From IMG/VR virus record IMGVR_UViG_2737471848_000024: a stretch of DNA of 5,447 nt. One strand, written 5' to 3'. Every line of letters begins with the position of its first letter. Within the stretch, counting starts at the first letter, position 1. This DNA comes from a virus. Lineage: Duplodnaviria > Heunggongvirae > Uroviricota > Caudoviricetes. A program made the position numbers and the translations under genes. The notes below the pieces were generated by a model. It was not told the DNA's origin, ran no database searches, and saw only the letters and a list, made by a program, of their open reading frames with translations. Positions 656 to 5,447 of this stretch are shown piece after piece.

Positions 656-3127
656 ATGAGTAAAGTCTTTATTTGCGCCGCCATTCCTGACGAACTGGCA
701 ACAAGGGAAGAAGGCGCTGTGGCTGTAGCCACAGCTATTGAAGCTGGCGACGAACGCCGTGCTCGAGCAAAATTTCACTGGCAATTCCTGGAACATTATC
801 CGGCTGCTCAGGACTGCGCTTATAAATTTATTATCTGCGAGGATAAACCTGGCATACCCCGCCCTGCCCTCGATTCATGGGATGCTGAATATATGCAGGA
901 AAACCGCTGGGATGAGGATTCTGCTTCTTTTGTCCCGGTTGAGACTGAATCCGATCTGATGAACGTCACTTTTGACAAGCTGGCCCCTGAAGTACAGAAC
1001 GCTCTCATGGTTAAGTTCGACACATGTGAAAACATCACCGTTGATATGGTTATTAGCGCACAGGAATTGTTGCAGGAAGACATGGCAACATTCAACGGAC
1101 ATATCGTTGAAGCGTTGATGAAAATGCCAGAAGTTAACGCCATGTATCCGGAGCTTAAGCTGCATGCCATCGGGTGGGTTAAGCATAAATGTAAGCCTGG
1201 TGCCAAATGGCCCGAAATTCAGGCAGAGATGCGCATCTGGAAAAAACGTCGCGAAGGTGAACGCAAGGAAACCGGAAAATACACGTCTGTTGTTGATCTC
1301 GCCCGCGCCAGAGTCAATCAACAGCACACTGAAAATTCAACAGGAAAAATCAGCCTGGTCATTGCTGCCATTCATCGCGAATACAAACAGACATGGAAAA
1401 CACTGGATGACGAACTGGCCTACGCTCTCTGGCCTGGTGATGTGGATGCCGGAAACATTGACGGCAGCATCCATCGCTGGGCAAAAAATGAAGTTATCGA
1501 CAACGACCGCGAAGACTGGAAGCGTATCTCGGCATCAATGCGCAAACAGCCTGATGCCCTTCGCTACGACCGCCAGACTATTTTTGGCCTTGTCCGTGAA
1601 CGTCCGATCGACATTCACAAAGACCCTGTGGCACTGAACAAATACATTACTGAATACCTGACTACAAAGGGCGTGTTTGAAGATGAAGGAACAAATCAGA
1701 GCGCAACTGACACTCTCTCGTCGCCAGTACCAGAAACTGATGCAGTGGAAACGGCAATTCCGGACAACGAAAAAACCGAATGCAAAGTGGAAGTCGAACC
1801 ATCTGTAGAGCGTGAGGGGCCGTTCTACTTCCTCTTCACCGACAAGGATGGCGAAAAATACGGTCGCGCAAACAAACTTTCTGGTCTGGATAAGGCACTG
1901 GCTGCCGGGGCTACTGAAATCACGAAAGAAGAATATTTCGCCCGCAAAAACGGTACATACTCAGGTTCACAACAAAATACTGGTGCATCTGACACGACCG
2001 CACAACCAGAGCCGGTAAAAGTTACCGCTGACGAAGTAAACAAAATTATGCAGGCAGCCAATATCAGCCAGCCTGACGCCGATAAGTTGCTTGCTGCCTC
2101 TCGCGGAGAATTTGTTGCAGGGATTAGCGACCCGAATGATCCGAAATGGGTTAAGGGGATCCAGACCCGCGATTCTGTAAACCAGAACCAGCATGAATCG
2201 GAACGGAACTACCAAAAAGCGGAACAAAACAGCCCAAATGCGTTACAAAACGAGCCAGAAACGAAACAGCCTGAACCAGTGGCGCAACAGGAAGTGGAAA
2301 AAGTCTGCACCGCCTGCGGTCAGACCGGCGGCGGCAACTGCCCTGATTGTGGCGCGGTGATGGGCGACGCAACATACCAGGAAACATTCGATGAAGAGTA
2401 TCAGGTTGAAGTTCAGGAAGATGATCCGGAGAAAATGGAAGGCGCTGAACATCCACACAAGGAGAACACTGGCGGCAATCAGCATCACGATAGCGATAAT
2501 GAAACTGGCGAGACGGCAGATCACTCAATTAAGGTGAACGGTCATCAAGAAATCACATCCACCAGCAGGACGTGTGACCATCTAATGATCGACCTTGAAA
2601 CCATGGGAAAAAATCCTGATGCCCCGATCATCTCAATAGGTGCAATATTTTTCGATCCGCAAACCGGAGATATGGGACCGGAATTTAGTAAGACTATCGA
2701 TCTGGAAACTGCTGGCGGAGTCATTGATCGGGACACCATTAAATGGTGGCTTAAGCAATCACGCGAAGCGCAATCTGCCATTATGACCGATGAAATCCAG
2801 TTAGATGATGCACTGTTACAATTGCGGGAATTTATCGACGAAAACTCCGGTGAATTTTTTGTTCAGGTCTGGGGAAATGGAGCCAACTTCGACAACACGA
2901 TTTTGCGCCGTTCATACGAACGGCAGGGGATCCCCTGCCCGTGGCGTTACTACAACGATCGCGATGTACGCACAATCGTTGAGCTGGGGAAAGCCATAGA
3001 CTTCGATGCCAGAACGGCTATTCCATTCGAAGGTGAGCGCCATAATGCACTTGATGACGCCCGTTACCAGGCAAAATACGTTTCAGCTATCTGGCAAAAA
3101 CTGATCCCGAGTCAGGCTGATTTTTAA
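656..3127 (+). CDS. Prophage exonuclease, 823 aa (annotated in enterobacterial prophages as exodeoxyribonuclease VIII-like / YdfE-like), with a C-terminal DEDDh 3'-5' exonuclease domain
   Basis: Long ORF with GAGG 10 nt upstream of the ATG. The C-terminal ~185 aa carries the three DnaQ-like motifs: MIDLETMG (Asp 2591-2593, Glu 2597-2599), WGNGANFD (Asp 2891-2893) and HNALDDARY (His 3041-3043, Asp 3056-3058). The middle ~290 aa are acidic and Gln/Asn/Thr-rich, and contain a DKLLAASRGEFVAGISDPNDPKWVKGIQTRD patch that I recall as shared with RecE-family proteins (uncertain). It occupies the position of ydfE in K-12 Qin. Confidence 0.85.
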   Translation: MSKVFICAAIPDELATREEGAVAVATAIEAGDERRARAKFHWQFLEHYPAAQDCAYKFIICEDKPGIPRPALDSWDAEYMQENRWDEDSASFVPVETESDLMNVTFDKLAPEVQNALMVKFDTCENITVDMVISAQELLQEDMATFNGHIVEALMKMPEVNAMYPELKLHAIGWVKHKCKPGAKWPEIQAEMRIWKKRREGERKETGKYTSVVDLARARVNQQHTENSTGKISLVIAAIHREYKQTWKTLDDELAYALWPGDVDAGNIDGSIHRWAKNEVIDNDREDWKRISASMRKQPDALRYDRQTIFGLVRERPIDIHKDPVALNKYITEYLTTKGVFEDEGTNQSATDTLSSPVPETDAVETAIPDNEKTECKVEVEPSVEREGPFYFLFTDKDGEKYGRANKLSGLDKALAAGATEITKEEYFARKNGTYSGSQQNTGASDTTAQPEPVKVTADEVNKIMQAANISQPDADKLLAASRGEFVAGISDPNDPKWVKGIQTRDSVNQNQHESERNYQKAEQNSPNALQNEPETKQPEPVAQQEVEKVCTACGQTGGGNCPDCGAVMGDATYQETFDEEYQVEVQEDDPEKMEGAEHPHKENTGGNQHHDSDNETGETADHSIKVNGHQEITSTSRTCDHLMIDLETMGKNPDAPIISIGAIFFDPQTGDMGPEFSKTIDLETAGGVIDRDTIKWWLKQSREAQSAIMTDEIQLDDALLQLREFIDENSGEFFVQVWGNGANFDNTILRRSYERQGIPCPWRYYNDRDVRTIVELGKAIDFDARTAIPFEGERHNALDDARYQAKYVSAIWQKLIPSQADF

Positions 3128-3185: not shown

Positions 3186-3389
3186 ATGAGCAGCTTATTT
3201 TTAACCGAAGATGAATTGCTAATATTAACGGGCTGCAAATATGCAAGCCACCAGCGAAAATGGTTAATGGAAAACGGGCTTCCGTTCTATACCAATCGTA
3301 GTGGCAAACCGATTGTCAGCCGGGATCTATTTACCTGCAATAAAACTTTACCACCACGCGAGGTAGAGCCGAATTTTGGTGCGATCTGA
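3186..3389 (+). CDS. Small excisionase-like protein (putative recombination directionality factor), 67 aa
   Basis: Small ORF directly upstream of the integrase; its stop TGA (3387-3389) overlaps the int ATG (3389-3391) by 1 nt, suggesting translational coupling. Size and position are typical of xis in lambdoid int-xis modules. The call is mainly positional; the sequence (MSSLFLTEDELLILTGCKYASHQRKWLMENGLPFY...) resembles DUF4224-type small proteins from memory only. Confidence 0.55.
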   Translation: MSSLFLTEDELLILTGCKYASHQRKWLMENGLPFYTNRSGKPIVSRDLFTCNKTLPPREVEPNFGAI

Positions 3390-4414
3390 TGGGAAGACGA
3401 AGGAAAAATCCTGAACACGAAAAATTACCTCCAAATGTATACCCAAATAAATATAGTTATGTATGGAAACCAACATCCAGAGAATCTGTAACACTAACCG
3501 CCATCAAGGATGGTTTAGCTGCTTTATGGAAAAAGTATGAGGAAACTGTAAATAATCGCGATCGTGCAATGACATTCGGTCGCTTGTGGGAAAAATTCCT
3601 CGCCAGCGCCTGTTACAGTGACCTTAGCCCAAGAACACAAAAAGATTATCTGCAACATCAAAAAAAGTTGCTTGCCGTATTCGGTAAGGTACCAGCGGAT
3701 TCCATAAAACCAGAACACATCCGTCGATACATGGACAAAAGAGGGGAACAGAGCAAAACGCAAGCCAACCATGAAAAAAGCAGTATGTCCCGCGTTTACA
3801 GTTGGGGATATGAGCGAGGGTACGTGAAGGCTAACCCATGTGCAGGTGTAAGTAAATTCAAGGCCAAAAACCGCGAACGATATGTAACCGACAAAGAATA
3901 CCAGGCAGTATTAAGCGTTGCACCTCTTCCTGTTTTTATCGCAATGGAAATTGCCTATCTGTGTGCAGCGAGGGTTTCCGATGTGTTATCGCTGAAATGG
4001 GAGCAGATTGGAAACGACGGGATCTTTATCCAGCAAGGGAAAACAGGGAAAAAACAGATAAAAGCATGGAGTCCACGATTACAGGCGGCGATCGAAAAAG
4101 CAAAACAGTTACCAACATCCGCCTATGTAATCAGCAATCAATACGGCAACCGATATATGTACAAAGGCTTTAACGAAATGTGGGTAGAAGCAAGAAATCG
4201 CGCAGGCAAAATTTCAGGTATTTTAACCGACTTCACCTTTCATGATCTGAAGGCGAAAGGAATTTCAGACTATGAAGGAAGCAGTCGGGATAAGCAACTT
4301 TTCTCTGGTCACAAAACCGAGGGGCAAGTGCTAATCTATGACAGGAAGGTTAAAGTTTCACCGACACTTGATGTCCCGTTACCTGAAAATATTCCAAGAA
4401 AATATTCCAAGTAA
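3389..4414 (+). CDS. int: Lambda-family tyrosine integrase (site-specific recombinase), 341 aa
   Basis: N-terminus MGRRRKNPEHEKLPPNVYPN parallels the lambda Int arm-binding N-terminus MGRRRSHERRDLPPNLYIR. Catalytic region: box I Arg in AARVSDVLSLKW; box II TFHDLKAKG (lambda TFHELRSL); GHKTEGQVLIYDR (lambda GHKSDTMASQYRDDR) with the nucleophilic Tyr. It ends 52 bp before the tRNA 3' end. Confidence 0.9.
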   Translation: MGRRRKNPEHEKLPPNVYPNKYSYVWKPTSRESVTLTAIKDGLAALWKKYEETVNNRDRAMTFGRLWEKFLASACYSDLSPRTQKDYLQHQKKLLAVFGKVPADSIKPEHIRRYMDKRGEQSKTQANHEKSSMSRVYSWGYERGYVKANPCAGVSKFKAKNRERYVTDKEYQAVLSVAPLPVFIAMEIAYLCAARVSDVLSLKWEQIGNDGIFIQQGKTGKKQIKAWSPRLQAAIEKAKQLPTSAYVISNQYGNRYMYKGFNEMWVEARNRAGKISGILTDFTFHDLKAKGISDYEGSSRDKQLFSGHKTEGQVLIYDRKVKVSPTLDVPLPENIPRKYSK

Positions 4415-4421
4415 TTCCAAG
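4386..4421. repeat. Tandem direct repeats: 2 x 13 bp AAAATATTCCAAG plus a third partial copy TAATTCCAAG, spanning the int stop codon
   Basis: Read directly: 4386-4398 and 4399-4411 are identical; 4412-4421 repeats the ATTCCAAG core. The copies are read in different codon phases (NIPR vs KYSK), so the repetition is at the DNA level. Confidence 0.8.
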
Positions 4422-4466
4422 TGTGATTTTTGTCACTGACTTAATGATGTATAAGTGATTGAATTT

Positions 4467-4556
4467 TGGCGGAGAGAGGGGGATTTGAACCCCCGGTGGA
4501 GTTGCCCCCACTCCGGTTTTCGAGACCGGTCCGTTCAGCCGCTCCGGCATCTCTCC
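4467..4556 (-). tRNA. serU: tRNA-Ser (anticodon CGA), 90 nt including CCA, with a long variable arm
   Basis: Reverse complement reads GGAGAGATGCCGGAGCGGCTGAACGGACCGGTCTCGAAAACCGGAGTGGGGGCAACTCCACCGGGGGTTCAAATCCCCCTCTCTCCGCCA. It has a 7-bp acceptor stem, anticodon loop CUCGAAA (anticodon CGA) and a T-arm GGTTCAAATCC. It closely resembles E. coli serU as recalled, and mtfA is adjacent as in K-12. Confidence 0.9.
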
Positions 4557-4649
4557 GTTCAGATGGTTGCCATGATGCCAGGAAATTTGGCATTTTAACA
4601 GTCCCTGTCCGTGCAATTTTGTTCAAGTGACGAGTTTGCGAGCAAAACG

Positions 4650-5447
4650 ATGATTAAGTGGCCCTGGAAAGTACAAGAATCAGCACATCAAACTGCCCTT
4701 CCCTGGCAGGAAGCACTATCGATCCCCCTTTTAACGTGTCTGACAGAACAGGAACAAAGCAAATTGGTCGCTCTTGCCGAACGTTTTTTACAGCAAAAAC
4801 GGCTTGTTCCTTTACAGGGCTTTGAGCTGAATTCATTAAGAAGCTGCCGGATAGCACTTCTATTTTGCCTGCCCGTTCTGGAGTTAGGACTGGAATGGCT
4901 GGATGGTTTTCATGAAGTCTTAATTTATCCTGCGCCATTTGTGGTCGATGATGAATGGGAAGACGATATCGGTCTGGTGCATAACCAACGTATTGTTCAG
5001 TCAGGTCAGAGCTGGCAGCAAGGGCCTATCGTTTTGAACTGGTTGGATATACAAGATTCTTTTGATGCTTCTGGTTTTAACCTGATTATTCATGAAGTCG
5101 CTCATAAGCTGGACACCCGTAACGGCGATCGCGCCAGCGGAGTTCCCTTTATTTCGTTGCGTGAGGTTGCTGGCTGGGAACACGATCTTCATGCTGCAAT
5201 GAACAACATTCAGGAAGAAATCGAATTAGTTGGTGAGAATGCGGCGAGCATTGATGCTTATGCTGCCAGTGATCCTGCTGAATGTTTTGCCGTACTTTCT
5301 GAATATTTCTTTAGCGCCCCAGAACTTTTTGCTCCTCGTTTCCCTTCATTGTGGCAACGTTTCTGTCAATTTTATCAACAAGATCCTTTGCAGAGACTGC
5401 ATCACGCTAATGATACAGACTCGTTTTCGGCGACGAATGTTCATTAA
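4650..5447 (+). CDS. mtfA: MtfA (Mlc titration factor A / zinc-dependent peptidase), 265 aa
   Basis: Translation from ATG 4650 ([28 protein letters not shown]...) matches E. coli MtfA/YeeI as recalled, including the HEVAH zinc-binding motif ([10 protein letters not shown]), and gives the K-12 length of 265 aa. The ORF track start at 4611 adds 13 residues not present in the recalled protein. Confidence 0.9.

Follow-up and report, generated by a model that had tools for sequence, protein, structure and literature searches.

Among more than 12,000 tyrosine recombinases, the position of the second catalytic arginine (Arg II) is occupied by arginine in 99.1% and by lysine in 0.5% of the sequences (Gibb et al., 2010; PMC2943603). 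The consequences of an arginine to lysine exchange at this position have been described for single mutants: Cre R292K is active in vivo as well as in vitro and accumulates the covalent intermediate, indicative of a ligation defect, while vaccinia TopIB R223K retains approximately 10% activity (PMC2943603). The activity of these two mutants demonstrates that lysine can serve at the Arg II position, while the ligation defect of Cre R292K demonstrates that a bare arginine to lysine swap is not neutral. Natural subgroups that depart from the RKHRH catalytic pentad have been described as well, such as the functional or conserved CTnDOT IntDOT and IntDes types, in which Arg I or His II is altered or the arginine is relocated; the pentad is considered to be 'otherwise strictly preserved' in this survey, with a lysine variant of Arg II unmentioned (Smyshlyaev et al., 2021; PMC8138268).

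Described relatives of the integrase analysed here are Sb28 of Salmonella ST64B and the integrases of the E. coli O157:H7 Sakai prophages Sp14, a serU prophage, and Sp4, which is located at yccA (PMC8190617). The ST64B record itself notes the similarity of Sb28 to the integrases of CP-933U and CP-933M. Circular excised forms of Sp4 and Sp14 have been observed after treatment with mitomycin C (Asadulghani et al.; PMC2669165), and excision of ST64B has been quantified by attP qPCR, with a second integrase, IntA, argued to act on ST64B (PMC12455584). In principle, a further integrase present in the cell could have assisted the excision of all three elements. A literature search retrieved no explicit description of a clade of integrases with lysine at Arg II (Lys-II), and no purified or mutated lysine-type integrase or biochemistry on any clade member.

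A lambda-like integrase locus facing serU

The window, that is the whole stretch of 5,447 nucleotides that was analysed, is 100% identical to the chromosome of E. coli strain OkiPb01684 (NZ_AP042519.1). It begins with the 3′ end of an IS3-family transposase gene (1–138), followed by a full copy of dicB (186–374; ORF list, Pfam and source record), the ydfD/DUF1482 gene, the gene for an 823 amino acid protein with a C-terminal Rv2179c-like 3′–5′ exonuclease domain (656–3127), the gene for a DUF4224 protein of 67 amino acids (3186–3389, plus strand) and the integrase gene int of the ST64B/Sakai Sp14 (CP-933U) type, which encodes a lambda-Int-like protein of 341 amino acids (3389–4414, plus strand). 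Downstream are three WATTCCAAG direct repeats (4390–4421, plus strand), the tRNA-Ser(CGA) gene serU as recognized by ARAGORN (4467–4556, minus strand), the 3′ end of which points towards int and holds the attL core, and mtfA (4650–5447). As the window contains int, the DUF4224 gene, serU and the dicB region, it is the end of a lambdoid prophage at serU that lies on the int side (attL). Genes for terminase, head, tail, lysis, replication and repressor functions are still present in the prophage, which has a size of approximately 47 kb and carries an IS3-family element in dicB.

With respect to the dicB region, where this IS3-family element is located with the end of its transposase gene at position 138 of the window, the source record shows a truncated dicB fragment beyond the element, while the full dicB is found at 186–374. 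Closely related strains, such as B19374 and A1, match the window only from position 181 onward, so the element is absent there. In the 823 amino acid protein, Pfam support covers the last approximately 180 residues (Rv2179c-like 3′–5′ exoribonuclease, E = 2.6e-67), with no Pfam match to the N-terminal approximately 640 residues; depending on the record, the protein is labelled 'exonuclease' or 'exodeoxyribonuclease VIII'.

The best match of the integrase in the PDB is lambda Int (PDB 1z1b, 1z1g, 5j0n), with E values of 6e-13 for the single sequence, 2.8e-25 for the profile and 2.9e-16 for the structure. The two proteins share the three-domain architecture and fold, the aligned catalytic residues R, D, K, H, H and Y and an N-terminus that reads MGRRR...LPPN in both, while the sequence identity is only approximately 22–24%. 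The AF2 model of the integrase has a pLDDT of 95.8, with full-length lambda Int as the best fold match and a Foldseek probability of 1.00 for lambda Int, Tn1549 Int, XerA, IntI and Cre. The Pfam profile PF00589 is matched with 43.6 bits at a cut-off of 27.1, and the further domains PF22022 and PF14659 are recognized. An N-terminal arm-binding domain is present, as the profile alignment spans residues 1–343 of lambda Int, and the N-terminal unit is predicted with high pLDDT to consist of three strands and a helix (residues 17–58).

As in lambda, where the gene concerned is xis, a putative excisionase-type gene is located directly upstream of int. While the partner in lambda is Xis, here it is the DUF4224 protein (Pfam PF13986, E = 1.9e-15), a putative excisionase according to its match to PHROG 1266 'excisionase' (E = 3e-21), the stop codon of its gene overlapping the start of int. 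Of 83 related loci, 52 have a homologous DUF4224 ORF directly in front of int, and a DUF4224 partner is equally found with the ST64B, Sp14 and Sp4 integrases. The Sp4 and Sp14 equivalents have been considered to be probably non-functional, with no DNA-binding motifs (Asadulghani et al.; PMC2669165). The targets of the two systems differ, as lambda uses the gal-bio attB site and the prophage of the window a tRNA gene.

The WATTCCAAG repeats are placed between int and the serU core, with three matches compared with 0.16 expected and none of 200 shuffles reaching three. In lambda, the P′1–P′3 arm sites adjoin int. Because their position mirrors this arrangement, the tandem repeats are likely P′ arm-type Int sites of attL, a candidate assignment by analogy. 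The stop codon of int falls within the span of the repeats, which also specify the conserved ...ENIPRKYSK tail of the protein.

Lysine 288 at the Arg II position

A preliminary description of this locus had pointed out that box II of the integrase reads H-D-L-K, that the box I arginine, both histidines and the tyrosine nucleophile are present and that there is no arginine within several residues of the lysine. These observations are borne out, and the peptides and coordinates reported (4210–4360) are correct. Arg I is R195 (AGG, 3971–3973), the equivalent of lambda R212, and the box I acidic residue is D198 (GAT, 3980–3982; lambda D215). The catalytic lysine of the beta-hairpin is K218 (AAA, 4040–4042; lambda K235), His II is H285 (CAT, 4241–4243; lambda H308), His III is H308 (CAC, 4310–4312; lambda H333) and the nucleophile is Y317 (TAT, 4337–4339; lambda Y342). 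At the position of Arg II, equivalent to lambda R311, Cre R292 and XerD R247, the codon AAG (4250–4252; like the other codons on the plus strand) specifies K288, located within a predicted helix (residues 285–294) of the AF2 model. The C-terminal catalytic stretch reads ...TDFTFH285DLK288AKGISDYEGSSRDKQLFSGH308KTEGQVLIY317DRK. The RKHRH pentad is incomplete, with K288 in place of Arg II and all other catalytic residues kept; on the basis of sequence homology, membership of the superfamily stands regardless.

The assignment of K288 to the Arg II column is reached by three independent alignments. A phmmer search against the PDB places TFHDLKAKG on TFHELRSLS of lambda Int (E = 6e-13, residues 1–313), MAFFT alignments with lambda Int again position K288 in the R311 column, and hhalign of the 52-sequence family profile with XerD superimposes H285/K288 on H244/R247; hhalign of this profile with Cre aligned the C-terminal 32 columns only (probability 0.3%), a segment that does not cover box II. 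An erroneous register with the true Arg II nearby has a very low probability. A different register that would put an arginine at the box II position, envisaged in the preliminary description, was found by none of the three methods, which are concordant for lambda Int and XerD, and His II stands three residues before K288, with His III and the tyrosine at the right spacing. The arginines closest to K288 are R270/R272 upstream and R300 12 residues downstream. R300 is not conserved within the family, as judged from the alignment of the best 150 50%-identity representatives described below. No support for a shifted register was found.

Extent, selection and activity of the Lys-II clade

Whether the lysine is family-wide or reflects a catalytically weakened enzyme that would fit a cryptic prophage had initially been left as two alternatives, with a broad alignment of homologues proposed as a check. 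Column 288 is lysine in 120 of the 120 nearest 90%-identity clusters (55–99% identity), which stand for thousands of sequences, some of the clusters having 1013 and 2068 members; R195, K218, H285 and Y317 are equally present in every one of the 120. An exhaustive HMMER search, covering 1.84 billion 50%-identity representatives, yielded 7116 hits, and among the best 150 of the 7116, which were aligned, 94 have lysine and 39 arginine in the Arg II column. The arginine-type relatives are more distant (approximately 30–40% identity) and differ in their C-terminal motif. In a neighbour-joining tree from which column 288 was left out, 76 of the 82 lysine sequences fall into one pure clade with approximately two changes by parsimony, and the integrase of the window groups with the lysine sequences. 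In the 52-sequence family alignment, K288, K218 and Y317 are invariant. The first of the two alternatives is the one that stands: the lysine is a family trait of a large gammaproteobacterial phage integrase clade and not a sign of decay.

The consensus of box II in the clade is HD[LI]KAKG[IV]SD, and a wider pattern combines HD[LI]KAKG[IVC][ST]D with a C-terminal SGHK...YDRK; the integrase of the window conforms to it with FHDLKAKGISD...SGHKTEGQVLIYDRK. The ST64B, Sp14 and Sp4 integrases, which belong to the same clade, have the box II HDLKAKGISD, and HDLK is found in ST64B Int (58.7% identical) and in the integrases of mEp390 and of Pectobacterium phage ZF40, the record of which names an induced lysogen as source. 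A pattern scan with one genome per species recovered 310 relatives, located in the Enterobacterales (Escherichia, Shigella, Citrobacter, Serratia, Yersinia, Xenorhabdus, Photorhabdus, Arsenophonus, Sodalis, Pantoea and Morganella) and beyond (Aeromonas, Shewanella, Idiomarina, Photobacterium and others). In complete E. coli genomes, the int gene is present in 1148 of 5426, nearly always as a single copy, so that this type of integrase, which is also that of Salmonella ST64B, occurs in about one fifth of these genomes, including the O157:H7 serU prophage. The integrase family and the existence of a minority lysine variant of the active site are both already known; what is added here is that the lysine variant is the mark of a clade that is large, under selection and biologically active.

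Sequence comparison places int under strong purifying selection (dN/dS approximately 0.05), with a dN/dS of 0.049 between the gene of the window and the O157:H7 allele and of 0.026 between it and another E. coli allele. Of 80 species' loci, 47 use AAA and 33 AAG for the lysine, all with ORFs of at least 300 amino acids; as this set was selected by a pattern that requires lysine, the figures describe synonymous codon turnover and not the frequency of lysine. A single transition would convert AAG to the arginine codon AGG, yet arginine was never found in close relatives.

These data bear on the second alternative, in which lysine disables or strongly weakens the enzyme and what remains is a decaying integrase in a cryptic, immobilized prophage. 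In its favour are the high conservation of Arg II among tyrosine recombinases, the ligation defect of the Cre arginine to lysine mutant, the IS3-family insertion and the non-cognate ends of the prophage (see below) and the annotation of int as a pseudogene by PGAP. The lysine, however, is invariant in the 120 clusters, within a clade distributed over many gammaproteobacterial genera, the gene shows a low dN/dS and synonymous turnover of AAA and AAG at the lysine codon, the other catalytic residues are all kept, the ORF is intact and relatives excise in vivo. Together with the intact junctions of int with tRNA genes, the purifying selection and the excision of relatives speak against the proposal of a weakened enzyme fitting a cryptic prophage, which we regard as highly improbable. 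With respect to annotation, the absence of a pentad arginine in the Lys-II clade should not be equated with loss of function or a dead prophage.

The PGAP/RefSeq annotation flags int as a 'frameshifted' pseudogene in the source strain as well as in O157:H7 strain 86-24. Despite this flag, the 341 amino acid ORF that ends at 4414 is uninterrupted and corresponds to the usual form; the PGAP coding sequence (window 3389–4439) is drawn to a TGA at 4437–4439 in another frame. Alleles with two repeats and a ...NSKCDFCH tail were considered as the source of the flag and rejected, as none was present among 269 retrieved proteins.

That all active close homologues carry the same lysine, named in the preliminary description as an observation that would speak against weakening, is essentially the case for Sp4 and Sp14 (PMC2669165) and ST64B (PMC12455584), with the reservation on a helper integrase made above. 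The phages vB_EcoM-606R7 and vB_EcoS-689R5, which possess a 99% identical integrase, were considered as proof of excision and rejected. The record of vB_EcoM-606R7, the one of the pair that was opened, includes host mtfA, asnT and ybtS DNA and is therefore a predicted prophage, not packaged phage DNA.

The allele at serU in O157:H7, which shares the integration site with the prophage of the window, is 94.6% identical to int on the nucleotide level. Along the gene (4001–5023 of the O157:H7 locus L005), dS is 0.65 in the first 450 nucleotides and 0.025 in the remaining 573 nucleotides, a mosaic pattern that indicates intragenic recombination. The diverged 450 nucleotides encode the arm-binding domain together with a portion of the core-binding domain. 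In O157:H7 strain 86-24, the integrase beside serU has 340 amino acids with HDLK kept; the O157 allele has lost Y24 through an in-frame 3 nucleotide deletion, while Tyr24 is invariant in five aligned integrases. Besides this allelic divergence in the 5′ 450 nucleotides, the ST64B, Sp14 and Sp4 prophages differ from the prophage of the window in their cargo.

Cumulatively, the integrase is very probably a functional lambda-like arm-binding tyrosine integrase of a clade in which lysine took the place of Arg II long ago. The clade includes Salmonella ST64B Int, the O157:H7 serU Int (Sakai Sp14) and the integrases of coliphage mEp390 and Pectobacterium phage ZF40, with a proposed active site of R-K-H-K-H plus Y within the motif HD[LI]KAKG[IV]SD. 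Lys288, the exact contacts of which we only infer, would take over the role of Arg II by providing a positive charge and a hydrogen bond to a non-bridging oxygen of the scissile phosphate, while R195, K218, H285, H308 and Y317 would perform the usual cleavage and ligation. Integrase, DUF4224 excisionase and arm-type sites would together mediate the integration and excision of a lambdoid prophage at the 3′ part of serU.

Several residues track the lysine. At residue 192 (window 3962–3964), which precedes Arg I by three positions, 88% of the lysine-type sequences have Cys, while 94% of the arginine-type relatives, and lambda, have Thr (TGxR motif). R230 is present in 81% of the lysine versus 15% of the arginine sequences, and K302 likewise follows the lysine. 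The co-variation of C192, R230 and K302 with the lysine is compatible with a possible co-adaptation of the active site, whereby these residues may tune the pocket.

The same co-variation can be cited for another arrangement, in which some other arginine comes to lie at the scissile phosphate in the folded protein and Lys288 is a bystander or helper, for which there is precedent in the IntCTnDOT and IntDes subgroups (PMC8138268). A bystander is, however, not expected to be 100% invariant as Lys288 is, R230 is located in the helix after the beta-hairpin and conserved to 81% only, and in the Cre and TopIB mutants lysine alone supports catalysis. A relocated arginine is considered improbable for these reasons, if less so than a weakened enzyme or a wrong register. 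IntDOT and IntDes are thus comparable as natural non-RKHRH subgroups, but unlike them the clade has its Arg II replaced by lysine in place.

The closest chemical comparison is with Cre R292K, vaccinia TopIB R223K and the XerC/D equivalents, in which Arg II is likewise exchanged for lysine and which show that lysine can sustain cleavage and recombination (PMC2943603). While these engineered proteins are impaired single mutants of arginine-optimized enzymes, the lysine of the clade is ancestral and selected, with presumably co-adapted surroundings and compensating changes presumably carried by the clade. The clade consequently represents a natural, selected Arg II to lysine site that can be set beside the impaired Cre, XerCD and TopIB mutants.

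Arg II normally stabilizes the tyrosine leaving group in ligation. On this ground it is conceivable, although rather unlikely, that the Lys-II clade has a naturally re-optimized active site and not a neutral variant, with a shifted balance of cleavage and ligation or an altered lifetime of the covalent intermediate, accompanied by the co-varying changes at Cys192, R230 and K302. If so, the clade would provide a natural system, so far unexploited, in which to study what Arg II does.

tRNA junctions and the far end of the prophage

In the window, serU is located 53 nucleotides downstream of int on the opposite strand. An opposing tRNA gene within approximately 60–160 nucleotides follows int in 40 of 60 species examined, encoding tRNA-Leu-UAA in 28 cases and tRNA-Ser-CGA and tRNA-Ser-UGA in six cases each. 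The sequence pattern of these junctions indicates repeated independent site-specific integrations with diversified target specificity. By locus, the targets correspond to serU for Ser-CGA, serT for Ser-UGA and the leuZ-cysT-glyW cluster for Leu-UAA.

In comparison with the yodB-serU-mtfA locus of MG1655, homology to the empty K-12 site begins at 4467/4468. Two differences between this serU and K-12 serU, G/A at 4498 and C/T at 4509, compensate each other, giving a G-C pair in one allele and an A-U pair in the other within the stem of the variable arm. The pattern is consistent with a phage-supplied tRNA 3′ portion of at least 43 nucleotides and a crossover 5′ of the variable arm; the differences could also be plain allelic variation.

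On the other hand, the far end of the prophage (23560–23801 of the far-end locus L007; NZ_AP042519.1 approximately 1480560–1480800) does not adjoin yodB, but a complete tRNA-Ser gene followed by hyaABCDEF. This is the serT locus, which in K-12 is approximately 1 Mb distant from serU. No second serU core was detected in the 67 kb examined. Recombination by Int through an att core common to serT and serU was considered and rejected, as the 3′ halves of the two genes differ, with only ...TCCGCCAAA common to both. The simplest reading suggests an inversion or rearrangement of approximately 1 Mb between the serU prophage and an element at yccA/serT, the site of Sp4. The resulting hybrid prophage with its non-cognate ends is probably unable to excise; if the rearrangement is read correctly, excision would be blocked whatever residue is present at position 288. 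The immobility of the prophage considered at the outset may consequently hold, due to its non-cognate ends, while K288 as its cause does not.

Beside the far-end serT, a triple repeat, TTGGTATA on the tRNA-sense strand, is found (L007 approximately 23600–23660), which is similar to the WATTCCAAG set at int. Its appearance is that of the arm for a related integrase that targets serT and of which the gene is gone, with a truncated espV found there instead.
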